This document shows positions 1,651 through 62,983 of a stretch of DNA of 64,000 nt, in pieces. The notes under the pieces are model-generated. The model ran no database searches, was not told the DNA's origin, and saw only the letters and a list, made by a program, of their open reading frames with translations. Position numbers and translations under genes: made by a program. The stretch lies in the NCBI GenBank assembly GCA_032718475.1, contig JAUCBJ010001036.1:1-64000 (forward strand). The letters run 5' to 3'. Numbering within the stretch: the stretch's first letter is position 1; every line of letters begins with the position of its first letter. Source of the DNA: Nemertoderma westbladi (lineage: Eukaryota; Animalia; Xenacoelomorpha).

Positions 1651-2237
1651 CTTCCCCCACTGCCCCATCCACAACTTTGGGTAGTGGAATATGGATGGAT
1701 AATAGTGGATGTGTACACCACACCTTGTAGGACTTTTGGGTTGTGGGCACTGGTGGTTGGAATAGGAAATTTTTTGGACAGTGGTATGAAATAAACCGTA
1801 CTACAAACGTTTCCATTTGGGCCCAGGGTTAATTCTAAATCTAGAAATATTGAACTACTGTTCGAGAACTCCAGTGTGAATTTTATCCCGGGTTTATCGA
1901 AAACTTCCTCACACGCTTTGTCGTACCTAGATACTATATCTGTCTTCACGGTTTCATTCAGAACATACGGGAAAATACCTTCCCCATCGTCTACAAAAGT
2001 TTTAAAAAATATGGCAGCAAACCTTTCAACTAAACCCACATGTTTGTGTATACGGTCTACGACCAACACCGCCACCTCTTTGCCAGCAGGGCCCCAAAAA
2101 AAACCTATTCCTTTGATTAACTTATAAAAAGCATGGTTAAATGAAAAATATGTATGGGTAAGTACGAACTTAAGTAAGATCATAATCTTGAGGGCTATAG
2201 CGCCTAGGGCACCATTGAAGGCAAAGGCTTGATACAC
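1651..2237 (-). mobile_element. Penelope-like element reverse transcriptase fragment
   Basis: ORF 1647..2237 reads TYFSFN..YK..KG...G, FKTFVDDG and IKFTLE..SSIFLDLEL, the RT palm/thumb motifs typical of Penelope-like elements. Confidence 0.65.
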
Positions 2238-2249
2238 ATCTGCATTAAA

Positions 2250-13532: not shown

Positions 13533-14012
13533 TGTGGAATTATATGGAAGGGTTTACTGTGGAAGCTTTCCCATGGTGGTGAATAGGCATTCCTTGGCTT
13601 AACGAGCCTAAACTATTCTCCTATTCATTATAGTAATAATTTCATACCACACTTAAATAGTTCTCATAAGGAAATATTTTGTGAGTCAAAAGTGCAAGTA
13701 AGTGAAAACGTACAAAATTATATTATGGTCGCTTTCATTGAGATGGCTTACAGTTTTGCTGCATGAAGACCCAACTAGTGTTTCTTATATTATAAAGTTG
13801 TAATAGAAAATAAAGATGATTCATAGAGCCAACGATGCACGAGATGATTCTGCTAATTTTTCAAGTTTCCCAAATTTTAAAGAAAACTACGAAATTTCGT
13901 TCATTCCTTTACGATTAGTTTTGACTGCTTAAAAGTTTAAACTCATTTGTAACCAACAATATCTATTAATTTCGGATGCGGATTTGTGGAATATAGTTAT
14001 TAGTTAATTAGA

Positions 14013-14191
14013 CTACTACTAATACTACTATATTAACTACTAATACTACTATATTAACTACTAATACTACTATATCAACTACTAATACTACTATATTAAC
14101 TACTAATACTACTATATTAACTAATATTACTACTATATTAACTACTAATACTACTATATTAACTACTAATACTACTATGTTAACTACTAAT
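14013..14191. repeat. 21-bp satellite (ACTACTAATACTACTATATTA), block 1
   Basis: About eight tandem units are directly visible. Confidence 0.97.
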
Positions 14192-15258
14192 TAACTCTTT
14201 TACAGGCACTTTATTAATAGAACAAAATGAATAATTCCTACTCCGATACCGATAATAAAAAAAATAATAAATAAAGAAAGAAGGGCCTGTTTAGAGGCCT
14301 ATGTCTACCACTGACAGTCAGTCTAGCCGGTGTTGGTATCAGCGTTAGTCAGGCGAATCGAGTCTGCGGACACCTGATGATAAACAGGGCGTTTGGTGGC
14401 GGATCTCGCTCCACGGAGACACATCAAACTGGAGCGGAGAAGCGCGAAGCTTATCTTCCTCCGCGTCCAGCAGATACACTCAGAGTAGCTGAGGTCGCGA
14501 CGATCCGAGAGTTTAAGCGATAAACGCTTAACGAACTGTTGCATCGCTGGCGCGGTACCACCAAAGGCTGAAAGTATCAGAGGCACAAACGACGACAGTT
14601 CGACCTCTCGGATGCGCTCCTCGTACTTCAGGCGTTTCCGCGCCTCGTGGTGGGAATAAGCGCCCTCGGTGGTCATGGCTGCGTTGGTGGCCGCTAGAGG
14701 GTTGTAGACCGAGACGTCGAAGTAAGTCTTCTCGAACCGGCCACCCCAGAACCCGCTGACAGAGACGTCCAACCTCGCCTGATCTTCTGTGGAGGTGGAT
14801 CTGTGGGTGAACTCCTCACCTGTTAGAGGCTGGAGTGTTGGCTCTACTGCGACGTTGTGGGCTACTTCAGTTAGCGCGTCGGCAACGAAATCGCGTATCT
14901 CGTTGTGCCTTATCGAGGGATAACCCCCGGTGGGGCACGACAGGACGTGTGAAGGGGAAAATCGTTCCCCACAGACACAACGAGAAGGGAGCGACTTCGG
15001 TTGCCAGCCGTAGCGCAGACACAGAGCGTCGCGGAACTCTTCCTTAGACAGGTGAGTTTTGTGAAGGGTGACCGGTTTTGAGTTCAACCAAGCTGAAGCC
15101 CCCTTCTCCGACACCAGCTCCCTCAGATTCTGTTGGGACTCCGATAGCCGACCATGACATTCTGTTGTTTTGGTCTTAGACGCCACGAAGGATTCAGCCT
15201 TTATTAGATTAGTGATATGGTTCTGATCCTCCCTGACGTCTGACATGGTCTGACATGG
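14192..15258 (-). mobile_element. 5'-truncated CRE-like non-LTR retrotransposon (CCHC knuckle + restriction-like endonuclease) inserted in the satellite
   Basis: Stop-free GC-rich ORF 14323..15246 with GASAWL, FRDALCLRYG, C.CG....H..SC, RHNEIRD, ARLDV..FDV and K..KY. Flanked by the 14-bp duplication TGTTAACTACTAAT (14178-14191 and 15259-15272). Confidence 0.85.
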
Positions 15259-15993
15259 TGTTAACTACTAATACTACTATATTAACTACTAATACTACTA
15301 CATTAACTACTAATACTACTATATTAACTACTAATACTACTACATTAACTACTAATACTACTATATTAACTACTAATACTACTACATTAACTACTAATAC
15401 TACTATATTAACTACTAATACTACCATATTAACTACTAATACTACTATGTTAACTACTAATACTACTATATTAACTACTAATACTACTACATTAACTACT
15501 AATACTACTATATTAACTACTAATACTACTACATTAACTACTAATACTACTATATTAACTACTAATACTACTATATTAACTACTAATACTACTATATTAA
15601 CTACTAATACTACTATATTAACTACTAATATATTAACTACTAATACTACTATATTAACTACTAATACTACTATATTAACTACTAATACTACTATATTAAC
15701 TACTAATACTATTATATTAACTACTAATACTACTATATTAACTACTAATATTTTAACTACTAATACTACTATATTAACTACTAATACTACTATATTAACT
15801 ACTAATACTACTATATTAACTACTAATACTACTATATTAACTACTAATACTACTATATTAACTACTAATACTACTATATTAACTACTAATACAACTATAT
15901 TAACTACTAATACTACCATATTAACTACTAATACTACTATATCAACTACTAATACTACTATGTTAACTACTAATACTACTATATTAACTAATA
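15259..15993. repeat. 21-bp satellite, block 2
   Basis: About 35 tandem units. It gives rise to the repetitive TTNTTIL and VVLVVNI ORFs. Confidence 0.97.
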
Positions 15994-16592
15994 ATTAAAT
16001 GCTTGAGTTAATACAATTATTTTATTCTTTAATTGTCAAGCTGAAGTAAAAAACCTTACCGGTAGGTATGCCAGTACAGTACGATACAAATACTAAAATA
16101 AAAAAGCAACTGACCATTAGACGTTGCATGCAATCAGTGATCAGCTGACGGCTGTCAGCTGATCAGTAGGTTTTGCCCCAATGGGGGCTTTCTCAAGTAG
16201 CTAGAGCACCCTTTGCGTCCTGTCCTGCAAAAACTAGAAATGTTTTATATACGCACTCGCCAGCCAGCTATTAACAAGCAGAAACGTGATTGGCGCAAGT
16301 TTGAGGTGCTGCTTCCCAGTGGTTAGACGGATACACTTCTACCTGTTTCACTTTACCGTCCCGTCTCCCTTGGGAACTTCTATCTATTGTCTCCTTTCTA
16401 GCACTAGCTACTTGAGAAAGCCCCCATTGGGGCGAAACCTACTGATCAGCTGACAGCCGTCAGCTGATCACTGATTGCATGCAACGTCTAATGGTCAGTT
16501 GCTTTTTTATTTTAGTATTTGTATCGTACTGTACTGGCATACCTACCGGTAAGGTTTTTTACTTCAGCTTGACAATTAAAGAATAAAATAAA
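15994..16592 (+). mobile_element. 5'-truncated Penelope-like element with an inverted pseudo-LTR
   Basis: 188-bp inverted arms (16017-16204 and 16404-16591). The spacer encodes LQKLEMFYIRTRQPAINKQ...* (16213-16326), the end of a GIY-YIG endonuclease. The arm carries a hammerhead-like core, GTAAG and AATAAA. Confidence 0.8.
16406..16503 (+). ncRNA. Variant hammerhead-like motif in the Penelope pseudo-LTR
   Basis: UUGAGAA core (U3/A8 variant, 16412-16418), one extra A, stem II GCCCC-CAUU-GGGGC, then GAAA (16434-16437). Candidate GUC at 16494-16496. Stems I and III are imperfect. Confidence 0.5.
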
Positions 16593-19500
16593 TATATTAA
16601 CTACTAATACTACTACATTAACTACTAATACAACTATATTAACTACTAATACTACCATATTAACTACTAATACTACTAATTAACTACTAATACTACCATA
16701 TTAACTACTAATACTACTATATTAACTACTAATACTACTATATTAACTACTAATACTACTATATTAACTACTAATACTACTATATTAACTACTAATACTA
16801 CTATATAACTACTAATACTACTATATTAACTACTAATACTACTATATAACTACTAATACTACTATATTAACTACTAATACTACTATATTAACTACTAATA
16901 CTACTATATTAACTACTAATACTACTATATTAACTACTAATACTACTATATTAACTACTAATACTACTATATTAACTACTAATACTACTATATTAACTAC
17001 TAATACTACTATATTAACTACTAATACTACTATATTAACTACTAATACTACTATATTAACTACTAATACTACTATATTAACTACTAATACTACTATATTA
17101 ACTACTAATACTACTATATTAACTACTAATACTACTATATTAACTACTAATACTACCATATTAACTACTAATACTACTATATTAACTACTAATACTACTA
17201 TATTAACTACTAATACTACTATATTAACTACATAATACTACTATATTAACTACTAATACTACTATATTAACTACTAATACTACTATATTAACTACTAATA
17301 CTACTATATTAACTACTAATACTACTATATTAACTACTAATACTACTATATTAACTACTAATACTACTATATTAACTACTAATACTACTATATTAACTAC
17401 TAATACTACTATATTAACTACTAATACTACTATATTAACTACTAATACTACTATATTAACTACTAATACTACTATATTAACTACTAATACTACTATATTA
17501 ACTACTAATACTACTATATTAACTACTAATACTACTATATTAACTAATACTACTATATTAACTACTAATACTACTATATTAACTACTAATACTACTATAT
17601 TAACTACTAATACTACGATATTAACTAATAATACTACTAATACTACGATATTAACTAATAATACTACTAATACTACGATATTAACTAATAATACTACTAA
17701 TACTACGATATAACTAATAAACTACTAATACTACATATTAACTATAATACTACTAATACTACTATATTAACTAATACTACTATATTAACTACTAATACTA
17801 CTATATTAACTAATACTACTATATTAACTACATACTACTATATTAACTACTAATACTACTATATTAACTACTAATACTACTATTAACTATAATACTACTA
17901 ATACTACGATATTAACTAATAATACTACTAATACTACTATATTAACTAATAATACTACTATATTAACTACTAATACTACTATATTAACTACTAATACTAC
18001 TATATTAACTACTAATACTACTATATTAACTACTAATACTACTAATACTACTATACTATAATACTACTAATACTACTATATTAACTACTAATACTACTCA
18101 TATTAACTACTAATACTACTAATACTACTATATTAACTACTAATACTACTATAACTACTAATACTACTAATACTACTATACTATATACTACTAATACTAC
18201 GATATTAACTACTAATACTACTAATACTACGATATTAACTAATAATACTACTAATACTACGATATTAACTAATAATACTACTAATACTACGATATTAACT
18301 AATAATACTACTAATACTACGATATTAACTAATAATACTACTATATTAACTATAATACTACTATACTACTATTAACTAATAACTACTAATACTACTATAT
18401 TAACTACTAATACTACTATATTAACTACTAATACTACTATATTAACTACTAATACTACTATATTAACTACTAATACTACTATATTAACTACTAATACTAC
18501 TATATTAACTACTAATACTACTATACTAATATACTACTAATACTACTATATTAACTACTAATACTACTATATTAACTACTAATACTACTATATTAACTAA
18601 TACTACTATATTAACTACTAATACTACTATATTAACTACTAATACTACTATATTAACTACTAATACTACTATATTAACTACTAATACTACTATATTAACT
18701 ACTAATACTACGATATTAACTACTAATACTACTAATAACTACTAATACTTAACTAATAATACTACTAATACTACTATATTAACTACTAATACTACTAATT
18801 AACTACTATACTACTATATAACTACTAATACTACTATATTAACTACTAATACTCTATTAACTACTAATACTACTATATTAACTACTAATACTACTAATAC
18901 TACTATTAACTACTAATACTACTATATTAACTACTAATACTACTATATTAACTACTAATACTACTATATTAACTACTAATACTACTATATTAACTACTAA
19001 TACTACTATATTAACTACTAATACTACTATATTAACTACTAATACTACTATATTAACTACTAATACTACTATATTAACTACTAATACTACTATATTAACT
19101 ACTAATACTACTATATTAACTACTAATACTACTATATTAACTACTAATACTACTATATTAACTACTAATACTACTATATTAACTACTAATACTACTATAT
19201 TAACTACTAATACTACTATATTAACTACTAATACTACTATATTAACTACTAATACTACTATATTAACTACTAATACTACTATATTAACTACTAATACTAC
19301 TATATTAACTACTAATACTACTATATTAACTACTAATACTACTATATTAACTACTAATACTACTATATTAACTACTAATACTACTATATTAACTACTAAT
19401 ACTACTATATTAACTACTAATACTACTATATTAACTAATAATACTACTAATACTACGATATTAACTAATAATACTACTAATACTACTATATTAACTACTA

Positions 19501-22192
19501 ATACTACTATATTAACTACTAATACTACTATATTAACTACTAATACTACTATATTAACTACTAATACTACTATATTAACTACTAATACTACTATATTAAC
19601 TACTAATACTACTATATTAACTACTAATACTACTATATTAACTAATACTACTATATTAACTACTAATACTACTATATTAACTAATAATACTACTATATTA
19701 ACTACTAATACTACTATATTAACTACTAATACTACTATATTAACTACTAATACTACTATATTAACTACTAATACTACTATATTAACTACTAATACTACTA
19801 TATTAACTACTAATACTACTATATTAACTACTAATACTACTATATTAACTACTAATACTACTATATTAACTACTAATACTACTATATTAACTACTAATAC
19901 TACTATATTAACTACTAATACTACTATATTAACTACTAATACTACTATATTAACTAATAATACTACTAATACTACGTATACTAATAAACTACTATACTAC
20001 TATATTAACTACTAATACTACTATATTAACTACTAATACTACTATATTAACTACTAATACTACTATATTATACTACTAATACTACGTATATTAACTACTA
20101 ATACTACTATATTAACTACTAATACTACTATATTAACTACTAATACTACTATATTAACTACTAATACTACTATATTAACTACTAATACTACTATATTAAC
20201 TACTAATACTACATATTAACTTATACTACTAATACTACTATTACTATAACTACTAATACTACTATATTAACTACTAATACTACTATATTAACTACTAATA
20301 CTACTATATTAACTACTAATACTACTATATTAACTACTAATACTACTATATTAACTACTAATACTACTATATTAACTACTAATACTACTATATTAACTAC
20401 TAATACTACTATATTAACTACTAATACTACTATATTAACTACTAATACTACTATATTAACTACTAATACTACTATATTAACTACTAATACTACTATATTA
20501 ACTACTAATACTACTATATTAACTACTAATACTACTATATTAACTACTAATACTACTATATTAACTACTAATACTACTATATTAACTACTAATACTACTA
20601 TATTAACTACTAATACTACTATATTAACTACTAATACTACTATATTAACTACTAATACTACTATATTAACTACTAATACTACTATATTAACTAATACTAC
20701 TATATTAACTACTAATACTACTATATTAACTACTAATACTACTATATTAACTACTAATACTACTATATTAACTACTAATACTACTATATTAACTACTAAT
20801 ACTACTATATTAACTACTAATACTACTATATTAACTACTAATACTACTATATTAACTACTAATACTACTATATTAACTACTAATACTACTATATTAACTA
20901 CTAATACTACTATATTAACTACTAATACTACTATATTAACTAATACTACTATATTAACTACTAATACTACTATATTAACTACTAATACTACTAATACTAC
21001 GATATTAACTATAATACTACTAATACTACTATATTAACTACTAATACTACTATATTAACTACTAATACTACTATATTAACTACTAATACTACTAATACTA
21101 CGATATTAACTAATCCATATTAACTACTAATACTACGATATTAACTAATAATACTACTAATACTACGATATTAACTAATAATACTACTAATACTACGATA
21201 TTAACTAATAATACTACTAATACTACTATATTAACTACTAATACTACTATATTAACTACTAATACTACGATATTAACTATAATACTACTAATACTACATA
21301 TTAACTATATACTACTAATACTACTATATTAACTACTAATACTACTATATTAACTACTAATACTACTATATTAACTACTAATACTACTATATTAACTACT
21401 AATACTACTATATTAACTACTAATACTACTATATTAACTACTAATACTACTATATTAACTACTAATACTACTATATTAACTACTAATACTACTATATTAA
21501 CTACTAATACTACTATATTAACTACTAATACTACTATATTAACTACTAATACTACATATTAACTACTACTACTACTAATACTACTATATTAACTACTAAT
21601 ACTACTATATTAACTACTAATACTACTATATTAACTACTACTATATTAACTATAATACTACTATATAACTACTAATACTACTATATTAACTACTAATACT
21701 ACTATATTAACTACTAATACTACTATTAACTTAACTACTAATACTACGATATTAACTATAATACTACTAATACTACTATATTAACTACTAATACTACTAT
21801 ATTAACTACTAATACTACTATATCGATATTAACTAATAATACTACTAATACTACTATATTAACTACTAATACTACTATATTAACTACTAATACTACTATA
21901 TTAACTACTAATACTACGATATTAACTAATAATACTACTAATACTACGATACTACTATACTACTAATACTACTATATTAACTACTAATACTACTATATTA
22001 ACTACTAATACTACTATATTAACTACTAATACTACTATATTAACTACTAATACTACTATATTAACTACTAATACTACGATATTAACTACTAATACTACTA
22101 TATTAACTACTATACTACTAATACTACTATATATAACTACTAATACTACTATATTAACTACTAATACTACTATATTAACTAATACTACTAAT
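16593..22192. repeat. 21-bp satellite, block 3 (~5.6 kb), with interspersed 30-bp variant units
   Basis: Roughly 260 units. The variant ACTAATAATACTACTAATACTACGATATTA is clustered near 17610-17710, 18195-18330 and 21130-21220. Confidence 0.97.
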
Positions 22193-22314
22193 AAATAATA
22201 AATAAATAACAATAAATAACAATAATAAATAACAATCCGCTGGCACATTAAATTCATTATAATTGTTCATTATAATTGTTCATTATAATTGTTCAATACT
22301 TGTTTGTTACTCAG

Positions 22315-22465
22315 GAAACTCATTCATATCATGTAACGCTCCAGTATACAAAGTAGACGCCGACGCAGACCGAAGATGCAACGTTCCTGACTTAGGAGTC
22401 AATGGGTTTGACAACATCGCCAGTTCCATTATAATTACAGGAATCTTTCCTTGGCAAATATACAG
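22315..22465 (+). CDS. Internal exon B of the beta/gamma-crystallin + FN2-like gene (phase 1 to 2)
   Basis: TTACTCAG acceptor and AG|GTGATT donor. Encodes (G)NSFISCNAPVYKVDADADRRCNVPDLGVNGFDNIASSIIITGIFPWQIY, with DL...GFDN.ASS....G..W.IY crystallin signature. Phase matches exon A. Confidence 0.88.
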
Positions 22466-24172
22466 GTGATTTTAGATTTCTATGAAAAAGTACAGATCGA
22501 AATCAGATATTTTTAATTAATTTAAAAATTAAAATCCTGAAGAATTGTAAAGGGCTAATTAACCGCAGCTGCAAATTTTGTATACCTAGAAACCCAGTCA
22601 ATCATTCAATACTTTTTACTCCTTATCGGATTAATTGATTTTATGTTTAGTGTGTGTCATGTACTATTATTGCTGCTATTCAGTTCTTCATATTATATCA
22701 CTATAATGCCTAAAGGAAATGACATTTTCATAAGACAAAACCAGGTAGCAGGTAGGTCTCTATAATTTAGCATTACCAGGAGCGCGATTACTTTTGAACA
22801 CTCCTGGTAAATACATTACAAACATGACGGTAAGGAAATCGAAAACTAAACATAAATTATTGTTGGTAAAACCGCTTTTAGATCGAATACGCCCAAGTCA
22901 TCAGTAAAGTCTATCAGTAAAAGGTATTTCTCTGGATTATTACCTCTACTTCTTAGGCATTAGTTTAGCCTGGTGCCCCATTTTTTTTAACCATCATCAC
23001 GACAAGATCTACGGTTATATAATTTATATATGTATTAACATATATATATACATATACATACATATAAAACAAATATATGTATGTATTAGCAATCCCATAT
23101 CCCTCGAATTTCTTAAATAAGTCAACATAGATAATATCCAGAATCAAAAACAAATCTGTCTTTCTTTGTTGATAAATCTTCAATTAACCTTATATGTGCC
23201 AGACTTGTATAAACTATACAATAGATTTCTATTAAATCGCACCAGGGATCCTGTTGAGTGACTGTTACGTGGGAAACAAAATGGGTTCCATAAAGGTCGT
23301 CAGACAATGGAGGGGAAGCCCCACTGATGGAGGAATTTTTTTCATTCCTTCTGAGTGGGTTCTCAACAAACTTCTCAAGTTCATAGAAGATAGTTGTAAA
23401 CATCAAGGGTGTTTTTTACTGAAACACAGGCTAACCCAAACAATAACCTATTTTCTACTTCATAAATTCCAATCTGAGTGCAAATAGCCCAAGCACTCTG
23501 TCTATCCTCTAGTTACCAAGGATGTGTGTTGTTCACTTGGCAATGAAATGTTTGTTTGGAGAATAATTTAATTTTAGATCAACTTCTAGGTTGGTGCTGT
23601 GTATCTGTAATGGAAGCTAGGCTACTGGAATACTAGGCTACTAGGCTACTCCTGCGTTCTGATGGATAACTGCCTGCCACTCCTGCGTACTGACGGAAAA
23701 CTGCCTGCCGTATTGCTGACAACTACCTGACTACTAAACACTGACTAACTAACCCCCCCCCCCCCCCCCACACCCCCCCTTTATAGACAACCGCTTAGCT
23801 TAGAATATATACTGGTAATAGTTTCCAAAACGTAAACAAAAGTAGCCCTATTCTCTTCTATGCAGCTTAAAAGTCCCATTAGCGTAAAACACACAGGCTA
23901 CTTTATGAATTACAAACCCAAAAAGGCTGAATGAGACACAGAATCCAAATTGCATCCCCCCCCCCCCCCCCCCCCCAATTTAAATTAAATTGCAGTAAAG
24001 CAACAAATCAGAAAATCACATAATCACTGTACTCAAAGACAGAATTGTGTAACACAGTTCCGGTACAATTATTAACATAATTAAAGATGGCTGACATATG
24101 TCATTCTTATTATAGCACAGCCTATCTCTCAGGATACATCCAATCAAAGCGCTAGAAAAGTATATACTGAAA

Positions 24173-32779: not shown

Positions 32780-35700
32780 CTCCCCACTTTGTTCTCATAA
32801 GAGAACAAATAATAATATTGTATTGATAAATTGAATAAATCTTCAACTAAATTAGTAATTACAACAATAATTATGTTTAGTGCATGTGTAAAAAATTTAG
32901 CAATTGATATTTCCTAAGTACAGATTTAACATAATAACACACCAAAGTCACAAATCTTACTAAATATACTGTACATATCAAGCACCGATTCCTACGAAAG
33001 TAATTAGTTAATTTTCTTACAAATTTTGCATTTTTAAACAACACCTTTTTTTGAATTTTTTTTTTTTTAAACCTTTTATTTATTTATTTGAGTAACCTTT
33101 GCTGCTCGAGTTAGATATAGACGTGTACGGTTTGGATGAACGATGTTATGTTTATCTGATTGATTTGTCTTTATAACATTTTTATCATGTGGTTGTATGA
33201 TGTCCTTAGTTGATTTGACATCTTCACCGGCGTCTTTGTTTTCTAGGTTTATATTTTTTAATTCATCATCGTCTGTTATTTCCAATGGAATGATCTGTTT
33301 CACAGACCTTGTTAAGGACCTAGATTCTTTCTTTCTCTCGCATACTGTAATTTTCACTGCTCTGCATTTACCATCTCTACTAATTATCATCTCCTCCACA
33401 CGACATAATTTCCACATGCATCGTGGAAGCTGTCTGTCCACCAATAGACATATGTCCCCCTTTTTCGGAATCCTTGGGGATTTGGGATCTAAATTTCCTT
33501 TTCTGTGTTGCTCTCTTAACTCCATTATGTAATCTTCATTGAAACTACGCCAAAAAACATTAGCAGCTTCTTCTTGGCGCGTCAATCTTGTGGTTAGGCT
33601 ATAATTAGTTTGTTTTCTTTTGTTTAACCTTTTTGTTGTTTTAAGGGGCAGCACATAACCTGTGACCTACTAAGAAATGTGCTGGAGTTAAGCACTGATA
33701 GTTGTCACTGTTATCATCTGATACAAAGGTTAACGGACGACTATTCACTGAGGCTTCTACGGACACCATGAAGGTTTGCAATTCTTCATACGTCAAGATG
33801 TTTCGTCCGATAACCTTCTTCAAACACCCTTTTATGGTTCCTACTAAACGCTCGATGAAACCATAAGCTGCAGGATTTAAAGGAACATTGAACTCCCAAT
33901 CAATGCCTAATTTGCCAAACTCATCAATAACTGTTTTGTATTATTTGGACCTTTTGTATTGCTTCGATTTCTTTCCATGAATTTTTAAATGTCTTAGCAT
34001 TATCCGACAAGATTAGAGATGGTGTCCCTCTTCTACCTATAAATCTGTGGAATGCGGCTATGAATGATTGATGACTTAAATCATACACTAACTCTAAATG
34101 GATGGCGCAAACTATTGCGCAAACAAATAAACATATATATACCTTTTCTGTCGGAAGATTTGGAAGATTCATTGCCACTTTTGCATATGTTTCATCATCT
34201 TCTCTTACTTCAGTTTTATTCTTGGTTTGGTCAACCTTTGTTGAGCTAATTGATATGTCCTGCAACTGTGCTTGTAAATGGTCAGAGTTTGTTATCCATC
34301 TGCGGAGATTAAATCCACCTCGGCCAAGAATTTGTCTCGCTTCATTAACAACTTGAATACCTTATTCTACTGTTTCTGCTCCCGAATTCAAATCATCTAC
34401 ATATAACTCTCTTAATTTTTCTATCACCTGAAATTGGTTTTTATTTGCTTCTAAGAGTTAGACGAAAACGATAAAGGTTTCCAACCAAATTTGGAAGGCG
34501 ATTGGGACCGCAAATGAGACAATCATTTAATGACAAATCAGTGGGGTTGACTCGCGCTGAGGCATTATAAACTACTCTTAGTTTTGTTGACTCCTTTTCT
34601 TCTCTTAAGACCCCGTGGTGTGGAATGTAATGAACTCCTGAACTATTGTGTTCTACTTCCCCAACCTTCACCTTTTCTATGTACCCTTTCGCATAATGTT
34701 CTTTAATTACCTTGTCATAGCGATCCAAAAGCCCTAATTTCTGTAGCCGTTTAACTAATGATAACAATTGCTTGAAACACATATTGTAATGATCATGTAA
34801 TTGATCGGGATTCAGCTTCCATGGTAAACTGACTGAGTACATACCTTCTTCTAATGTACATGTTCCTATTATATTTGCTGATCGCTCACTATGGCACTCT
34901 TTTGGACAAATACCCATACTATCTAAAGACCAAAATGCTTTTAAAATTGTCGCTAGTACATCTGTTGAGTTGTTCTCGCTATTGTTAGAGGAATCGACCT
35001 CCAATGTTGAAACAAGCATGCACATATTACCTTGTTGTGAGTTATTTGCACATAATGCAATTTCATTGTTGTGTAATTGTCCGGTGTTTCCTGAAAGTAA
35101 CCAACCTACTCCAGAATCTAATGCAACAAGGCCGGTATTAGAGACTCTAATTGATCTTCCAGTTACTATTTCCCAGTAGAAATCACTTCCAACTAAGAGT
35201 TGAACCGGAAACACACATTCTTGTGTTGATTGTTTATACGAAGAATTCGCTAATTCTATTGATTCAAATGAAACTCGAATTTTTACATATGTTTCTAACG
35301 GAATGTTATTGTGTATTGGATTGCAAATTGTGTCTACTACCAATGCTGACATTGTAAATATCGAGTTGTCCTTCATAACTAGGGTAATTTGAGCTACATT
35401 TAGAGATGTAAATTCACCTTCCTTACCTCCAAATCCGTTTACACTAATACTTTCCTTTCCTATAATCGGTAAGTTGTTATCCTTCACAAACTTGTTGATA
35501 ACAAATGACTTTTGACTCCCGAAATCGAAAAATGTATTAGTTTTGCTTATACCATTGTGGTCTGTTTGGCAGTCAATAGTCGCGGTTTGAAGTAAGGCAT
35601 TTGAAGGTCTGGCGGTTGTATTGTACATATGTAATAACATAGCTGTAGTATCTTTATGCTCCACTCTGCAGAGTTCATCGTTTGATTGGTAAGGCGTTTG

Positions 35701-37190
35701 AGCCATTGTAGCTAACATGTTGTGTGTTGTATTTGATTTAAATGCTCCTGCATTTGTATTGTGTTGCAAACGAAAACAAATTGAGTTATGATGGCCTCAT
35801 TTTTTGCAGGTGTAGAACGGCTTTCTACGTGTGCAATCCTTTGCTTGATGTCCGGGAAGTAGACAATTGTAGCACAAATTCTTTTCATCGAGTGCAATTT
35901 TTCTTTGCGAAACTCCCTTGATAAGTTGGCAGTCAGTTGAAAAATGTAATTGACCGCAATATACATATTTCGGACAAAATGCGTTCGGTTTAGGTGTTGC
36001 TTGAGTTTGATAATGTTTCTGGGATGTAGATGTGGATTGGTTAGAACTTTAGTGACTTGGCCCTCTTTGTTGGTGTTCTGGGACTTTTACACCTATTGCT
36101 AAAGCTGCTGCTGTTGCCTTGTCGCCACCTTGCGGTTTAAATTATTTTTGTGCACCTTGAGTATTTGATTTATTTGTATTTGTGTTTGCGAATTCGGTCA
36201 TTGCCTCTTCGCTTGCTAACTGTAACCGAATTTGCTCCATTAACCATAACAAGTCATCTATATGATTATTTTGTTTTGCTAAAAGTTTTGCACCGAATTC
36301 GAAAGGTAATATACCCATAATATCAGGGATAACCGTAATTTGATATGACTCTGGTTTTGTGTTTAATGCTTCCAAAGCTCGTATTTGTGATTGGCAAGTA
36401 TCATACACCTGCCTTAATGTATACTTCCTACCATTAAATATGTGATTAATGTTCCTCAGTTTATCGATGTGTGCTTGTATGATACGACCTTTAGAACCGT
36501 ACCTATCTTGTAATAAATCCATTGCTACCTTATAATTTTCAGACGATATTGAAAGTCCCGTTACTACTTCTTTCGCTTCACCAATTAAACTTTGTATTAA
36601 ATGTTGTAGTTTAAATACGTCTGGTAATCCAGAATCATGAATTGCGGAGCGAAAAGAATCTCGCCACCCGCAATATTCTAATAAATTTACAGAAAATTTT
36701 GGAGGGGCTAATTTAGGTAACACAGATCTAGCATAATTACTACTATTAGCATAAAAACTACTTCTATGAGAGGGTAATTCAATTGCAGCACCACCGGTAT
36801 CTTGTTCTACTCTAGTTTCTGATAAAGTTGTTTCTGATAATGACAGTTGTAACTGAGTTATTGCGTTTGTGAGTTTAACCTAGTACGTCATTGATTGTTG
36901 TTGTTGATTATCTTCTTCGTCCATAATTGCCCAAATTGCAATGTCCATTTCGTCTAAGCGATTGACATAGCCTTGTAAGATTGACACCTGAGACATTTTT
37001 CTCCCGATATTGAAAGACTCCATATCGTCAGAGTCTTTAAGTGCGATTGTTGCTGCGGCTCGAACGCCGCCTCTTGAGCGAATTTTTCGGGATAACTCCT
37101 CAGCATCCGCCATTGTTTGTTGTGCGTATAGTACGCAATAATTAATTTAACACAAATACATGGTAAGAGTTTTTTTTATCGGGCGCCAAA

Positions 37191-54550: not shown

Positions 54551-54748
54551 TTCAGAAATGCTCAACAGTAGCAGGGCCACGACCATATCGGGATTGTGTT
54601 TTTCCATTCAAATATAATGGCACTGAATACACAAATACTTGTCCTGTTGAACCCAATGATCACCCTTGGTGTGCCACAGAAGTTGACAATGATGGAAGTT
54701 TCGTTGTTGGCTCTGGAAATTGGGGAATATGTGCCTGGCAGTGTATTG
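54551..54748 (+). CDS. Internal exon D: fibronectin type II-like module (phase 1 to 1)
   Basis: TTGCAG acceptor and G|GTATGT donor; 198 nt. Encodes (L)QKCSTVAGPRPYRDCVFPFKYNGTEYTNTCPVEPNDHPWCATEVDNDGSFVVGSGNWGICAWQCI, with FN2 signatures C.FPF.Y.G..Y, WCAT and WG.C. Not listed in the ORF track. Confidence 0.9.
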
Positions 54749-55025
54749 GTATGTTAAACATATACAACTGCTGTGTGAGTTGTATATATATGTACGATAA
54801 TAACAAAATCTATTTTTATATTAATAAAAACTAGATATCTATTTATGTACAATAACAACACAATTCATTTTTATTAATTACTAAACTAGATATCCATTTT
54901 TATGTTAATTATAACTAGATTCTCTATCTAGTTTGCATAATTTTTTAGATAAGACTTGTGGATAATTTAATAAATATTGTATAATATGTAGAACAAATAA
55001 ATAAGGGCTATAAAACATGGAAGCA

Positions 55026-55638
55026 GGACAATTCGGTCCCGGACAATTCGGTCCCGGACAATTCGGTCCCGGACAATTCGGTCCCGGACAATTCGGTCCT
55101 GGACAATTCGGTCCCGGACAATTCGATCTGGACAATTCGGTCCTGGTAAATTCGGTCCCGGACAATTCGGTCCCGGACAATTCGGTCCCGGACAATTCGG
55201 TCCCGGACAATTCGGTCCCGGACAATTCGGTCCCGGACAGTTTGGTCCGGTCAATTCGGTCCCGGACATTACAGTCCCGGACAATTCGGTCCCGGACAAT
55301 TCAGTCCTGGACAATTCGGTCCAGGACATGTCGGTCCGGGACAATTCGGTCTTGCTTGGACAATTCCGTCCCGACAATTCTGTCCTGGACAATTCGGTCC
55401 TGGACAATTTACTCCCGGACAATTCTGTCCCAGACAATTGGGTCCCGGACAATTCGGTCCCGGACAATTCGGTCCTGGACAATTCGGTCCCGGACAATTC
55501 GGTCCTGGACAATTCGGTCCAGACAATTCGGTCCCGGGCAATTCGGTCTCGGACAATTCGGTCCCATTAATTTTGTGTTTTGGGACCGTATTGTCCGGGA
55601 CCGAATTGTCCAGATACTGACTAGGACAATTCGGTCCC
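55026..55638. repeat. 15-bp minisatellite GGACAATTCGGTCCC with two inverted units; probably a repeat-rich non-autonomous element
   Basis: About 36 tandem units at 55026-55565, inverted units at ~55582-55611 and one more forward unit at ~55624. Confidence 0.9.
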
Positions 55639-57039
55639 AAACAGGGGCAGTTTCATGGGGGGGATGTGGGGGTGGGACACCCCCCTAATTCCCAACTAAA
55701 TGAAAAAGAGACGAAAATCCACGGGCAGCAGTGCGATATCTCATCGCGGTCAACGCTACAAAGTAAAATGCAAAACAGATACAGTAGGTGTGGAGCTATA
55801 TTAACAATGGTTACAGGATAGAAAACAATAAAACATTTCACGATGGAAAGACTGTCAGGTATGAAAGAATTTAGAGTCATTGTTACCGATAGCATGTGAA
55901 ACGGATATTGTTGAAACTATCGAATTGAGTACAGTAATTAAGAACTGGATTAAAATAGGATTTAAAAAAACGTAAGATTCAATTCAAATAATTAAAACGA
56001 TAATTTGTTGAATTGAATTTTTTTGTCAACTTTTATAAATTACTGTTAGTAGCCTACTACCTCGTTTTAAACATTAATATTTAGTTGTGATAATAGGGTT
56101 GCTGCGTGAAATTTTTCGAGCTGATATTATGATTGCATATTGTCAATTACTATTATGATTATATTTAATTATTAATTAGGCCTACTATTATAATTATCAC
56201 CGCATAAAAATATAAACATTTATTCGTGAATTGTTACTTTTTCGCTCGAATGTACCCCAAAATAGGGAGAAAAAAGTTTCACTTTTTTACCTAAGGAAAA
56301 TAGTAACCCGCAAGATTGCATTGATTTTACTTTTTTCCCTGCTTAAATTAAACAATTTTTGGTGGAATTTCTTATAAATACAGTATGTGGTTTTTCTCCA
56401 CATTTCACCACATTACATGTGGTAAAAGAGCATCAGCGTAGAAAAGGTTTGCACGTAATTGGAGCAAAATCCAGACACGGTCTCAAAAGTTATTGCAACT
56501 TTAGTGTCTGCACGGCGTACTCTAAAACGGAATTCAGTATCTAATATTAATAAGGTAGTTCCGTGCCCAGGTCACCGGGGTAATCATAATATTGTTGGGG
56601 GGAGTTTGATCTTTTACAGGTGACACAAAACTGATTTCGGTTGCCACATAGGAGGAACTTTTCAAACAGATTACTTAGATGGTCCAATATTAACATGTTG
56701 AATAGCTTAGCTCAATTGAAATCAGGCTAATTCCACGATATTATGAACAATATCAGTATTAGAAGGATTAGGGACATAAATACCTATTACATTATACGTA
56801 TTTATTCGGGTATGATAATTGTATGGTACATTATCTTGAATGAATAATTTGAATGATAATGAATTTGAATGAGTAACCTTGACTGCATCTTTAGAGACTT
56901 TAGAGATCTTTGAGACCGTTATAGTGAACTCTATCTTAACACTAGGGTTCTTCAAGGCAGACCAATCATGCTGACCTGAGGAATTCTTAATAGGTTTAAC
57001 AATGTTTTGTCTCCCAAGAATATTTCAATTAGGTAGTTA

Positions 57040-57529
57040 GGCCCCCTTCACACGGAGCAACTTGTTTCTGAAACTTGTTGCTGGACACCCTCACACACAG
57101 AAACTTGTTGCTGCACCTTGTTTCCGAAACTTGTTATTGTGTGTGAGGAGTCCAGCAACAAGTTGCTGCATCTTGTTTCAGAAACTTATTTCTGTGTGTG
57201 AGGGGGTCCAGCAACAAGTTGCTGGAAGTTATATTCCCAGCAACTTTTTTAAAAACCTTTTTCACATCCAATTTTTATATTAGAGCTAATATTCGATAAA
57301 TTGAGTGATTTAATAATATATATAAATGACTGGACATGTTAGCTATTTGTTTTGAAATAATTGTTATTTTCTTGAGCAACAAGTTTCTATGTGTGAGGGG
57401 GTCCAGCAACGAGTTGCTGAAACAAGTTTCGGAAACAAGTTGCAGCAACTTGTTTCTGTGTGTGAGGGGGTCCAGCAACAAGTTTCAGAAACAAGTTGCA
57501 GAAACAAGTTGCTCCGTGTGAGGGGGGCC
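57040..57529. mobile_element. PIF/Harbinger-type MITE
   Basis: TIRs GGCCCCCTTCACACGGAGCAACTTGTTTCTG and CAGAAACAAGTTGCTCCGTGTGAGGGGGGCC. TTA duplication at 57037-57039 and 57530-57532; internal repeats. Confidence 0.9.
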
Positions 57530-57829
57530 TTAGTTAGTTTATCTTTATTCATATAAAATTCAAATGTATAAAATACAAATGAGGCAGTTAATATTGAGAT
57601 ATTTACTGATAGCTAAATGAGCCAATGCCAATGCCAAAAATGCCAATGCTACTAAGTAGCACCTGTAACACAATGAATACCATACAAATATATATACATA
57701 TAAATTATAAAATATCTCTACTCGTAATAAATTTACTCCAACCAAAACATAACAAATAGTATTGGAACTAGGTGTTACTACCATCCTACTTCTTATTTAG
57801 TTCACGTTTAAAATTTGTTAGAAAATAGC

Positions 57830-59518
57830 ACCATCATCTGGCAAACCGCAGGATTGCATTATCATATTTGACGAGGTTCACATAAAGGCCAGTATACAGT
57901 AACGCGGCGGACATTTGATAGGACATGCAGTAGATGGACCATTCGAAACAATCTAACAATCAAAACCAGCTAGAAAGGTTCTGAGTATCATGGTTAAGCC
58001 CTTATTGAGATTGAGTAGATGTGCATTCATGGTGAAGTTGATCCCAGTCTACTCATTGCAGAATGACTTTCTCATAGAACAGCTTTCGAAGGTAATTAAC
58101 CTTGTAAATTCTTGCAATGGAAATGTGATTAGCCTATTAGCTGACAACTTATCTACAAACCGAACTGCCTTTAAATAGTACAACGCAAACTATGGTAATC
58201 CGAACTTTCCTTACCTTGGTTCAGTGTCTCCAGATGTTGGTCAATCTAAATTCTTCCACATGCTCTATGACCCGACTCATCTCCTTAAGTCAATTCGCAA
58301 TAACTGGGTCACTGAAAATATCCAAAGATTGACAATAAGGGTTCCTGGCACATCGCGTTATATTCGCGGTGACTGGAAGGACATTAAAGAGCTATACAAG
58401 GTTGATTCCATGAATATAGTGCGAATGACTACTCTAACCCAGGCAGCCATAAACCCATCTTCTTTTGAGAAGCAGAAGGTTTCTCTAACACTCCAGGTTT
58501 TCAATGAGAAAACTGTGGCCGCTTTAGCCTTGAGAGGAAACAAAGAGACAGCCGAGTTTGTTGATATAGTGCTGCGTTTCTGGAAGATTGTCAATGTCAA
58601 GTCCACTAGCATAGGATATAGGTTGAATGATCCTCACCGTTATCCAATAAAGCCGCCGACTGATTCCCGTTTGACATATCTGAGAGATTTGGCTGGTAAT
58701 ATTAAAGATATGAAAGGGGGGAAGGGAGTGAAACGTGTAGAGAGTTTGACCACAGAAACTCGAACCTCAATGATATCTACACTCGAAGGATTATGTGACA
58801 TTACAGAGAAACTGCTTAGATTCAATGGATATAATTATGTCTTGCTTGGCTTACTACATTCTGATCCGATCGAAGGAGAGTTTGGAGTATACAGGCAAAT
58901 GAGTGGCGAAAATTATAACATCTCTCTGGAACAGGTCATGTATTCAGAGAGATTACGACGAATGAAGATTTACCACAGCTTTGACATCGAACCTATTAGT
59001 CACGAAAAGAACCACTGCTGCACGAGCGAATTAACTAATAATGAACTGGAAGATATTGACTACGTCCTTGAAAATGAAGAATACAGCATTAGTGACACAG
59101 AGAAAAGCGCTTTGATGTACAGTATACATGCGGCTATGTGACCTTCAAGGAACAACTGCCCATTGATGTCTCAGAACTTAAAGATTGTTCACAACTTCCA
59201 AAGTGTGACTTCACGGACATGGTATCTAGAGGAAAGCTTTCAATTCCACGTGTAGACATATTGCATCTAGCCTGTGCTTCTCTGTCACTTACCAAACGGC
59301 GCTATATTGGATGTACAACCAGGATGAGGCGATTTGTCGATATCATATATGACAATACCGTGGTCGATAGTGCTATTGATGGTAGGAAGGCAGGTAATAT
59401 CCACAGACTCTGCAATATACGGATGAAGGGATTCTCCAAGTTCTACAGCAATAAAGCGGCTAATGACAGAGATGTAGAGACTAATAATAGGAAGAAGATA
59501 AAACTGAATAGCCAATAG
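57830..59518 (+). mobile_element. P-element/THAP9-like transposase pseudogene (catalytic core and C-terminus)
   Basis: IIFDEVHIK, LADNLSTNR, YDPTHLLKSIRNNW, FEKQKV and SDPIEGEFGVYRQMSG, with stops and frameshifts. Confidence 0.9.
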
Positions 59519-60219
59519 GGCTGCAATAACATAAATTAGACAGAGACTCTGTTGAATAATAGCTTACTGTAAGCTAAATGACGTGTTATCGAAAATGAAC
59601 ACTTATTTTGAATAAAAATTAAGTAAAGTTTTTCACCCGTTAGGCCGCGATTACATTACGCACAAAGTTCTTTGACTTATTCTCAGTAAATAAACAGTAA
59701 ATTTCCAGTAAACAATAATAAGTCTAACAGGTCTAACTGTACTCTGGGATAAACGTATCCCAGAGTCTGCTCTGGGATGCCTCCGTACAGATTATATATA
59801 TTTCGAAATATTGTGGCTCGTATATTTTATTAGGAGTTCGGTTTCCGTAGTAGATACAGTCAGTTATTTCACACAACTTATTTCAAAGGTTATTTCGAAT
59901 ATCTTTCAACAGTTAGTTATTTTATACTAATAAATTATCGCCAGCAAATTGTCGTAAAATATTTACATTAAGTACAATACTACATTAGGTTGTTAGCAAT
60001 ACAAATTAAAAACATTAAAAACGTTCGCATTAAAAACAATGAAAGGAAATTGAGAAGTTTACTTCTGTAAATTAAATTAATTAGGCATACACTGAATAGA
60101 AAAAACCGGCCTCTAATAAAATTAACACTGTATGCGAGCATCGCGTCCTGAATATATACTATGTTCTAGAAGTCCTTGGTGTGTGTTTATCTGGTTTTTG
60201 GTGTAGTTAGTTTGATTAA

Positions 60220-60275
60220 CATGTGTCCTGCACGGGTTAGTGTAGCTGATGAGCCAAATCCCGGCGAAACACATG
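60220..60275 (+). ncRNA. Type III hammerhead ribozyme
   Basis: Stem III CAUGUGU/ACACAUG (7 bp); GUC cleavage triplet ending at 60227; stem I CUGCAC/GUGUAG with loop GGGUUA; CUGAUGA (60246-60252); stem II GCC/GGC with loop AAAUCCC; GAAA (60266-60269). Confidence 0.9.
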
Positions 60276-60563
60276 CAAAAATGTAACCAATGTGATAATT
60301 TTACTTACAGTATTTAAACAGGGTTGCGCTTTGTGTTTAAATAAAATGATGACTACTTACGGTTGAACAGAGAGGAACATGTTGTTTCTCTGTTTCCAAT
60401 TAATTTTACTTGCTTGATATTGTTGGTCTGTCAAAAACATAATTCGTTCAACTCAAAATTATATTTAAGAGACCGGATCATGCTGAACATGGTTGTATAA
60501 AATACCTTCCTATTATTTTATTTTTATTATATATATAACTATATACAGTATTTAGGGCTGTAT

Positions 60564-61864
60564 CAGGGCCTTCATAAAATAACAGGCCTGGACACAGAGC
60601 TGCCCTCAAAAAAATAAGAGGCCAAGTAGGAAGTTTTCAAGAATAAAATCATAAAGGATTTACACAAATTGCCAATGGAGTTATGTTCTAGAACAAAAAT
60701 AATTTAATATTTTATTAAATACTTGTTGTGTGTTGTGAAATTTTGAAATTATGGTTAGACACTGCAGTGTCAATAACTGTGAAAGTGGGAGTCAGCGGAG
60801 TGCATTGAGAACTGTTTTTGCTCCACCAAAAAACGTCGAAAAGAGAAAGTTGTGGCAAGAGGCACTACGCGAAAATTGTGTAGTGACATTAACTGATAGT
60901 ATGGGAGTTTGTGAGAACCATTTCATTCCAAGTCATGTGATTGGAACAGGGCAAAGAAAGCGCCTTCATAGAGATGCAACACCGTTTTCGTGCCGGGGTA
61001 ATGTGGGAGCAAGCTCAAATTAATTTGCATCAACTGAAGAGAAGAGAAGACTTGTAAATGAGGGTGAAAGACTAGATGCGGAGATCAGAGAGTTTTTGTC
61101 AAGTGACATAATAGTGTCCACATCTCAATTCGATGAGGGCGAACTATCTGAACCAAACAAGCTATTCTATAACTTAATCCAGATAGCTGACGACAAAAAA
61201 CTCAAAAAGTTGAAAAGTGTTGGATGATGGAACTATTTACGTCAACATTTTACAAACATGATCGAAATACTAATTCTTTTTGTATAATTTATCTATGAAA
61301 CGCAATCTTTAATTTCAGTTCAGAAAATAAAGTAAATGTTTAATTAATCATTCACGTAATATCAATAAATTATTATCAGATATTAATGGTATCATCAATA
61401 AAAAGTTAGCTTACTTTATAACGAAATGGCTTTATATATAGATAGATATAGATATATAGATAGATATAGATATAGATGTATAGGCTACTGTATATAGCTT
61501 ACAGATAACGAAAAAGAGCCCTTACTTACCCGTTGCTAGGGCGAAAGTCATACCCGATATACTGTAGTGGGGTGGGTGTTGGTCACATAGCCCCAAACTT
61601 GTTAGTTCATACACGATATAGTACTGATTTCTGTTGATCCAATGGCCACAAAGTTGTTTGTTTACCCATTGCTAAGGAGAAAGTCACTGTTGCTATGGTA
61701 ACTGTGACTTAAAAATGTGTCCATTAAATTCCCCATACACGATATAGTACTGATATGTGTTGGTCCCATGATCATAGAGTGAAATGAAGTAACACTTCCT
61801 ACTTGGCCTCTTATTTTTTTGAGGGCAGCTCTGTGTCCAGGCCTGTTATTTTATGAAGGCCCTG
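60564..61864 (+). mobile_element. Non-autonomous P-superfamily element retaining the THAP domain
   Basis: ~71-bp TIRs CAGGGCCTTCATAAAATAACAGGCCTGG...; 7-bp duplication GCTGTAT at 60557-60563 and 61865-61871. ORF 60751-61023 reads CSVNNC...F..P......W...VCENHF...RL..DATP (C2CH THAP finger). Confidence 0.92.
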
Positions 61865-62059
61865 GCTGTATTCATATTTTATTTTGCAAAATAATAAAAT
61901 AAAGGTTAGAAGAATAATTGTGCTCATTTAATCGAGTTAACTGATACAATATGTAAGTGAAACTCCTATTTACTTGTGTAGCATCAAACCAGAAATCGCA
62001 TTAGTAACTGCGCTCGAGATGTGGCTGACATGTCTGTGGCCCAGGCCCGAGTCCCAGAC

Positions 62060-62983
62060 CATGGCCTACTATATTTATACGGCCTAACAGTTCACTTGAA
62101 CTGGCCTCTTAAAAAGAGGCCAGTTTTTTTTAACAATATTTTGAGATTTTGATATGGGAAGAGTTCTATAAATTTTCATTTGCAGCAATTTGGTCAATGG
62201 ACGTAATTGAAGTCTCCTCGTTAATTAAGCAAGATACTAAATTGTATGGTAGCTAGTGTTTTACATAGGTTTAGCTAGTAATTTCAACACTGGTTCCGAC
62301 ATCCTACTTCATTCTATAAATATTTTTTATTAGCTAGTTTTTATTACTATTTGTATAGAAAATGTTCCAGAACATGTTAGCTCTTCATTTTAAAAAAAAT
62401 ATGTTCTAGAACAAATATTTTTTGTTCTAGAACATTTTTTTTTTTTTAATCTGGATTATGTTTAAAACGCATGGAATCGTTCTAAAACGTGTTGAAAATT
62501 GTGAAAAAAAATATTGTTGAAAAATCTTTTCGAAAAAAAAAATTTTGAAAATTGTTTTTTATTAATTTTAAACACGTTTTAGAACTATTCCATGCGTTTT
62601 AAATAGAATCCAGATGTTTTTCAAAAAAATGTTCTAGAACAAATATTTTTTGTTAAACTTTTAAATTAATTTTAAATTTTTTTTTTAAAAATGAATAGCT
62701 AACATGTTCTGGAACATTTTTTTAAGTAGGATGTCGGAACCAGTGCAGTGTGGAAATTACTAGCTAAACCTACCTAAAACATTAGCTACCATAAAATTTA
62801 GAATTTAAAATTTAAAATTTAATGAGGAGACTTCAATTACGACCGTTGACCAAATTGCTGCAAATGAAAATTTATAGAACTCTTCCCATATCAAAATCTC
62901 AAAATATTGTTAAAAAAAACTGACCTCTTTTTAAGAGGCCAGTTCAAGTGACCTGTTAGACCGTATAAATATAGTAGGCCATG
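62060..62983. mobile_element. Foldback (almost fully palindromic) non-autonomous element with P-like ends
   Basis: Termini CATGGCCTACTATATTTATACGG and CCGTATAAATATAGTAGGCCATG; 7-bp duplication CCCAGAC at 62053-62059 and 62984-62990. Arms are complementary up to a centre near 62525. Confidence 0.9.

Follow-up and report, generated by a model that had tools for sequence, protein, structure and literature searches.

The window, that is, the 64-kb stretch of DNA from Nemertoderma westbladi that was analysed as a whole, is rich in transposons and contains LINE remnants, BEL/Pao-type remnants and a THAP domain. A dispersed, non-coding repeat of about 350 bases with a G+C content of 33% is located on the + strand at 60179-60531 and carries a type III hammerhead motif (60220-60275). 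This repeat is wedged between two DNA transposons. The one on its left is P-element-like and broken (57830-60180, + strand, left limit approximate); it was recognized by a match to Pfam TNP-like_GBD and by relatives with PF21787. Its right end abuts the repeat, with loose ends behind 60177/60180, unlike flanks and internal skips, and no left end was found in the window. The last 70 bases of this transposon are much deeper in DNA contigs than its body, as if they were common to many short derivatives. Because the 5' flank of the repeat is the end of a DNA transposon, the original target of the repeat is unreadable. On the right lies a THAP-bearing element (60564-61864, + strand, Pfam THAP) with 74-base terminal inverted repeats (I23); the 7 bases at 60557-60563 recur at 61865-61871 as its target duplication. 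For this THAP-only element, one contig of 3,000-3,700 bases was seen in each of three runs, suggesting that a longer form exists elsewhere.

A fibronectin type II exon with AG and GT ends (54551-54748, + strand; Pfam fn2, E 2.5e-9) is located 5.5 kb upstream of the hammerhead on the same strand and is likely the exon D of the first-pass annotation, which had considered the motif to lie probably in the following intron. The exon and its GT donor were recovered, but Pfam identified no further exon in 118 of the 136 other + strand frames, the frames left out being the known exon, transposon-like frames and others. With one exon upstream and no other exon found among these frames, the hammerhead may plausibly be intronic.

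Several further elements were recorded. A BEL/Pao-type LTR retrotransposon remnant (DUF1759, DUF5641) is present at 33079-36879 (- strand), and several LINE reverse transcriptase remnants lie elsewhere in the window. A frame at 1650-2288 (- strand) resembles by eye the thumb region of a Penelope-type reverse transcriptase; it fits no Pfam family, and its atlas look-alike (0.94) has PF26215 HTH_animal in 39% of the members, so that it serves as a lead only. A large satellite with a 21-base unit and a strong strand skew occupies 13800-23000.

The hammerhead motif and its repeat

The motif was identified from its sequence, by a descriptor scan and with the Rfam model RF00008 (Hammerhead_3). Stem III is formed by 60220-60226 and 60269-60275 (7 pairs). 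U16.1 and C17 are found at 60226 and 60227 in a GUC triplet, and the predicted cut falls between 60227 and 60228. Stem I pairs 60228-60233 with 60240-60245 (6 pairs including one G-U) and is closed by loop I, GGGUUA (60234-60239). CUGAUGA (60246-60252) is followed by stem II, GCC/GGC (60253-60255 with 60263-60265, 3 pairs), which is closed by loop II, AAAUCCC (60256-60262), and GAAA is located at 60266-60269. The topology is that of type III, with loops closing helices I and II and helix III open, and the CUGANGA and GAAA core and the NUH site are present. The first-pass annotation of an intact type III hammerhead with a complete core and three paired stems was thus borne out by the scan and by the full-length model match.

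The descriptor scan found this single hammerhead in the 64-kb window; there was no second one on either strand, and no type I match either. As a background, 150 Markov-simulated windows with the same local dinucleotide make-up were scanned, and these contained one loose and no strict type III match. RF00008 applied to an 86-base stretch matched the full length of the motif (60220-60275) with 31.7 bits and an E-value of 1e-5, a score below the gathering cut-off of 48.5. No Rfam family matched at its gathering score across the window, and an E-value scan of 1.5 kb with Rfam reported no hammerhead. The TGATGA at 60347-60352 was considered as a second ribozyme core and is not one in this copy; other copies have C at 60347.

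The first-pass annotation had found neither a tandem partner nor a parent element for the motif. This holds inside the window, where no tandem partner is present, but not genome-wide, where the motif lies in a multi-copy repeat; the accompanying guess of an undescribed retrozyme- or SINE-like family gains support from the same result. The repeat was mapped over 59300-60900 with public Logan DNA contigs from the runs X1, X2 and X3, which represent two samples, and its limits were placed at about 60179 and 60530 by a step in depth and by contig ends. Four of six runs contained the stretch, and none of the six is recorded as RNA, which carries no information about expression. The summed contig depth in X1 is 18,000-72,000 at 60164-60541, about 8,600 at 60110-60163 (the transposon end) and 235-1,445 outside 60110-60541; contig depth collapses past about 60530. 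The segment 60150-60560 (411 bases) was matched by 403 contigs in X1 and 187 in X2, of which 206 and 87, respectively, were at least 99% alike.

Contig depth is not equal to copy number. Single contigs on the repeat reach a depth of 1,605 (X1), 2,518 (X2) and 7,632 (X3), and long contigs that enter unlike flanks have depths of about 19-38, 2-29 and 42-82 in the same runs. From the comparison of these two sets, a copy number of about 100, as an order of magnitude, is inferred. A figure of thousands of copies taken from the summed depth was rejected because overlapping short contigs add up; for the same reason, the rise in depth across 60179-60247 was not taken as 5' truncation.

Among the 16 pieces listed out of 601, three begin at 60179/60180 and three stop at 60530, all of them continuing in unlike DNA; in each trio, two probably represent one locus in both samples. 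In three of the 16, the ribozyme and rod region alone is shared and is followed by 236, 286 and 833 unlike bases, so older relatives keep the ribozyme-leader module while the rest diverges. None of the 12 substitutions listed falls in 60220-60275. This is weak evidence of constraint, because the substitution tables are incomplete and the family is young; 40 of 125 substitutions are listed for 59300-60900, and one among them, at 60347, is missing from those for 60150-60560. The run X4 (small share) had no cover at 60218-60271 and shallow cover elsewhere in the repeat; a hole of this kind is not evidential.

At the 5' end of the repeat, the family extends at least 13-26 bases upstream of 60179 in other, short contigs, and in other copies the end merges into TG/TATG repeats. 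Long contigs beginning at 60180 have a single-copy-like upstream depth. The 3' end consists of a T-rich stretch followed by a TA run. No terminal inverted repeats are present at the ends, and for this reason a MITE was rejected. There is no long ORF in or beside the repeat and no reverse transcriptase or GIY-YIG frame adjoining it. The window contains no tRNA, and the repeat has no GGTTC box B; a box-A-like match is present at 60199. Among the contig joints listed, none goes back into the repeat as a tandem arrangement would. Two opposite-strand joints are listed. One of them connects 60228, the base that directly follows the cut, with 60394 and occurs in both X1 and X2; since 60228 is also the tip of a hairpin and the strand geometry of the joint is not given, it does not necessarily go back to a cut RNA.

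This copy is without six bases that other copies have at 60333-60336. These bases would complete a second hairpin at 60311-60343 (AGGG facing CCCT), which is lost here; one diverged loose end retains the pairing with different letters.

Fold of the motif, antisense leader and predicted rod

The complementarity of loops I and II through GGG/CCC, pointed out in the first-pass annotation, is present in the sequence. A Watson-Crick run of three bases between the loops is also present in 40 of 63 environmental motifs; GGG/CCC is a candidate tertiary contact, the copies offering no covariation by which to judge it. When the isolated motif was folded with ViennaRNA, the GGG/CCC bases were recruited into a nested misfold 4.7 kcal/mol below the hammerhead fold. 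For environmental type III motifs the correct fold was the minimum in 37 of 61 cases, and a gap as large as 4.7 kcal/mol occurred in 4 of the 61. ViennaRNA ignores tertiary contacts, so this preference is a caution and not a verdict; with that caution, the isolated motif is predicted to fold poorly, which counts against fast activity.

Pattern scans of metagenome and viral contigs, exact as well as near-exact, yielded no relative. When the pattern for type III was loosened, 75 loci were obtained in metagenome contigs and 12 in viral contigs. These were rejected as relatives, their best similarity to the repeat being two matches of 30-31 bases inside the ribozyme. Some of the loci occur in pairs (L004/L005, L011/L012, L041/L042 and L058/L059), where a short environmental contig carries two instances of one type III hammerhead on a single strand, like circular RNA-like contigs with terminal overlap; some of these have partly blocking leaders.

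The repeat begins with a feature that is absent from the first-pass description of the motif. The 41 bases directly in front of the ribozyme (60179-60219, + strand) are an imperfect, G/U-rich antisense copy of its 3' half and are referred to as the leader, or blocking arm; other copies have extra related bases upstream, seen in loose ends before 60179. The reverse complement of the leader contains no hammerhead core. The duplex of leader and ribozyme has a predicted energy of -33.3 kcal/mol, matched by none of the 25,493 41-mers of the window outside the locus; these were judged by duplex energy because joint folds are confounded by self-folding G+C-rich stretches. None of 1000 leader shuffles reached the joint fold of leader and ribozyme. 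Measured alike, the leader duplex is stronger than those of all 66 environmental hammerhead leaders (next -28.8 kcal/mol).

Leader and ribozyme together are predicted to form a rod of 98 bases (60179-60276, + strand) with 38 pairs and small internal loops. Its energy is -41.0 kcal/mol (z -6.4), and none of 300 shuffles was as good. The rod has 10 G-U pairs and no A facing C; the absence of C in the leader is the same fact and not an independent one. The opposite strand folds much worse (-24.5 kcal/mol, z -3.6 versus -6.4 on the + strand), and the region folded as DNA is weak (z about -2), on which ground a role as a DNA hairpin was rejected. Taken together, the G-U pairs without A-C, the poor fold of the opposite strand and the weak DNA fold would be a signature of selection on the + strand RNA.

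According to the prediction, the rod buries CUGAU, both strands of stem II and GAAAC, and its apical loop (60227-60229) coincides exactly with the scissile bond. The cost of forcing the hammerhead fold is 24.5 kcal/mol in 60179-60280, 14.3 kcal/mol in the whole repeat and 7.8 kcal/mol when 180 further upstream bases are added (60000-60540). With a 42-base leader included, the gap is 20.9 kcal/mol, larger than in all 57 environmental cases (maximum 12.0). Given the gaps of 4.7 kcal/mol for the isolated motif and 20.9 kcal/mol with leader, the ribozyme with its leader may rarely cleave. Prefix folding indicates that stem I forms earlier than the leader captures it.

In a circular fold of 60179-60531 the pairs of the rod hold a mean probability of 0.98. 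Outside the rod, the repeat has no greater structure than its shuffles (z -0.2), and the circle is 63% paired, compared with above 70% reported for retrozymes (PMC4918200). The sole rod position among the listed substitutions, 60213, occurs with two letters and is unpaired in this copy; it faces the U at 60243, with which both variant letters could pair. In about half of the depth in X1 and about two fifths in X2, two bases are inserted behind 60272, and stem III then has 6 pairs.

Retrozyme-like reading and known hammerhead elements

The reading preferred here, to which a probability of about one half is assigned, is that the repeat is a non-autonomous retrozyme-like element, the tandem transcript of which would be cut into units, while the rod would hold the ends and lock the circle. 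A head-to-tail transcript would be cut after C17 (60227) in each unit. The 5' end of the monomer would then be 60228, and its 3' end would consist of the leader of the next unit and 60220-60227. With the monomer thus opening at 60228-60276 and closing with the leader and 60220-60227, the rod would pair the last 48 bases of the monomer with the first 48 and juxtapose the two ends, so that 2',3'-cyclic phosphate and 5'-OH, the ends that cleavage leaves (PMC7936874, in part), would lie side by side at the tip of the hairpin for ligation. In the circle, the rod would prevent the ribozyme from refolding. A borrowed reverse transcriptase, most likely a Penelope-like one, would copy the circle once round from the U/A-rich stretch; such one-round copying would explain why the copies have their start about 48 bases ahead of the cut site and their end in the TA run. 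The monomer ends and their juxtaposition are deduced from the anatomy, the reverse transcription by a helper is deduced as well, and the identity of the helper is a guess.

Several observations speak for the retrozyme-like reading: copies are dispersed, their ends are fixed in unlike flanks, the module is kept in diverged relatives, the fold points to a design at the RNA level on the + strand, and size and G+C content fit animal retrozymes. The joint at 60228 in X1 and X2 is indirect support, with the reservation given above. In X2 and X3, moreover, the loose ends that precede 60179 look like the T-rich 3' end of the repeat itself, as a head-to-tail junction would give; this resemblance was judged by eye in AT-rich low-complexity sequence. 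Against it, no tandem master was seen, either as a partner in the window or as a joint that goes back. The predicted gaps are large both for the isolated motif and with leader, and there is no excess of structure outside the rod. A further point against it is that, for one Penelope element, cleavage was dispensable for insertion in vitro (PMC11167929). As regards the lock, a self-cleavage of 54% was recorded for a fragment of a plant retrozyme, a kind of element in which the arm is likewise blocked (PMC4918200).

In the papers cited here, the known elements are divided: plant LTR elements have type III ribozymes and animal tandem repeats have type I ribozymes (PMC4918200, PMC7229834), and it has been asked whether the propagation of repeats requires the type I form (PMC3088659). 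Plant LTR retrozymes contain type III ribozymes in LTRs of 300-400 bases in which a hairpin blocks the ribozyme, together with a PBS, a PPT and 4-base target duplications (Cervera, Urbina and de la Pena 2016, PMC4918200). The repeat is like them in having a type III ribozyme in a repeat of 300-400 bases, a complementary arm predicted over the ribozyme and frequent isolated copies. It is unlike them in its animal host, in that no second LTR, PBS, PPT or 4-base target duplication was seen, in its T-rich/TA 3' end, the loose ends listed having neither a terminal CA nor a primer site, and in its G+C content of 33%, versus over 55% in the plant elements (PMC7229834).

Animal non-LTR retrozymes are repeats of 150-450 bases and low G+C content with type I ribozymes that are expressed as circles (PMC7229834; review PMC7761336); many of them occur as monomers, and the terminal repeats of Penelope elements are related to them (Li et al. 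2026, bioRxiv 10.64898/2026.07.22.740005). The metazoan elements of these authors and of Cervera and de la Pena 2020 (PMC7229834) agree with the repeat in being animal and non-coding, with a unit of 150-450 bases, low G+C content (criterion under 45-50%), one hammerhead per unit, frequent dispersed monomers and no LTR signals. They differ in that theirs are of type I, often with a weak helix III, whereas the present one is of type III with a 7-pair helix III, a predicted control by an antisense leader, and no tandem arrays seen in the window or in contig joints.

Type III motifs in animals have been described before. Those in termite and dipteran genomes and in HDV-like RNAs have long helices (de la Pena et al. 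2021, PMC7936874), and mammalian Clec2 has a discontinuous type III hammerhead (PMC6155905). The termite, dipteran and HDV-like motifs share with the present one the type III form, the occurrence in animal genomes and Watson-Crick complementarity of loops I and II, in the present one as a candidate contact. However, theirs have long helices I and II and an internal GCCR loop, and the termite ones are isolated; here a compact ribozyme, with 6 bp in stem I and 3 bp in stem II, lies in a multi-copy repeat with no adjoining long frame.

The element thus falls short of one defining trait of plant LTR retrozymes and of one of animal non-LTR retrozymes. By analogy, the best reading is that it would work like a retrozyme, with its lock as in the plant kind and its size, composition and ends as in the animal kind. 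The fuller proposal of a type III animal retrozyme lineage, with a 350-nt circular RNA, a compact ribozyme with an antisense lock and a mover of the Penelope type, not the LTR type, is put forward tentatively. If true, it would mean that a viroid-like design is encoded and amplified in an animal genome, with the rod offering the cut ends to a ligase.

A full-text literature search, with most subscription papers outside its scope, found no animal repeat of many copies that combines a compact type III ribozyme with a blocking leader. Supplementary motif lists (e.g. of PMC7229834 and PMC3088659) lay outside the search and could hold such families, and fly motifs have been announced as in preparation. 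If a repeat that is young and present in many copies in an animal unites an intact type III ribozyme with a blocking arm of the plant style, then the parts can mix. The element offers a small testable system and would be a clean exception to the split between type I and type III, and does not indicate a new kind of gene control.

Other possible origins of the repeat and the neighbouring gene

The alternative that survives best, although unlikely, is that the repeat belongs to a longer autonomous retroelement, e.g. a Penelope-like one, as its terminal repeat (pseudo-LTR) or its 3' end, and that the ribozyme trims the transcript of that element. This copy would then be 5'-truncated, or its upstream part would have been lost to the DNA transposon. 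The continuation of the family upstream of 60179 in short contigs is consistent with this. Penelope-like hammerheads likewise occupy terminal repeats that are a few hundred bases long and are accompanied by inversions and AT-rich or (TA)n targets (PMC4209133, PMC8557442, PMC11167929); inverted 5' pieces and (TA)n targets are called typical (PMC8557442), and the present repeat has the two opposite-strand joints and the TA run at its 3' end. The weak reverse transcriptase remnant at 1650-2288 (- strand) is the only Penelope-like trace in the window and is a lead only. Against this origin stands the type of the ribozyme: those of Penelope repeats are of type I and mostly minimal, and the term 'type III' does not occur in the excerpts of PMC4209133 and PMC8557442. 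They also lie beside a reverse transcriptase or GIY-YIG frame, whereas the repeat adjoins neither, and the upstream depth of long contigs beginning at 60180 is single-copy-like.

Slightly less probable again is that the repeat is a solo LTR left by an LTR retrozyme or TRIM of animals, directly corresponding to the plant LTR retrozymes, which a Gypsy- or BEL-type helper would move by way of a larger circle. The type III ribozyme, the blocking hairpin and the size of 300-400 bases are as in the LTRs of plant retrozymes, among which solo LTRs are common (PMC4918200, in part). This copy starts with TG at 60180, and LTR retrotransposon remnants (DUF1759, DUF5641) are present in the window. The ends of the repeat argue otherwise. 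LTRs typically end in CA, whereas the 3' end near 60530 is T-rich with a TA run, and the 5' end runs into TG/TATG repeats in other copies. Among the loose ends listed behind the 3' end (12 of 118 and 24 of 287), there is no common sequence resembling a primer site. The LTR of the Helenus TRIM has a box A and a GGTTC box B (PMC10886601), whereas the repeat has the box-A-like match only.

Doubtful, and more so than either of these origins, is that the repeat is SINE-like and copied from an uncut transcript, the leader keeping the hammerhead permanently off as a tolerated relic. That copies start upstream of the cut site, that the predicted lock amounts to 21-25 kcal/mol, and that a box-A-like match lies at 60199 would all fit. 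Unprocessed RNA was, moreover, the main substrate of a Penelope reverse transcriptase in vitro (PMC11167929, in part). However, box B is missing, and Pol III would terminate at the T runs that lie at 60195 and 60299. Neither a perfect core nor diverged relatives that keep the ribozyme-plus-leader module would be expected of a dead motif.

With the retrozyme-like reading still preferred, the suggestion of the first-pass annotation that a co-opted element cuts the host pre-mRNA is not supported. That the motif is an intronic ribozyme regulating the fibronectin-domain gene in this way is very improbable. In its favour, the motif shares its strand with an upstream exon that has a splice donor, conserved intronic hammerheads are known in amniotes (PMC6155905), and the predicted gap shrinks to 7.8 kcal/mol in 60000-60540. 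Against it, this copy, which is wedged between transposons, has many young and nearly identical counterparts, the predicted effect of its own leader is to block it, Pfam found no downstream exon in the window among the 118 + strand frames, and 42-44% of Xenopus retrozyme copies are intronic without special meaning (bioRxiv 10.64898/2026.07.22.740005). A RECK-type hammerhead is a single-copy motif conserved at an orthologous intron position; a young multi-copy repeat was found here. The region between or around the exon and the ribozyme also contains a tandem array of short period and two MITE-like palindromic elements (55014-55620, 57039-57530 and 62060-62983). Regulation of the host gene is accordingly regarded as unlikely; most likely this copy was inserted passively and plays no part in the neighbouring gene.
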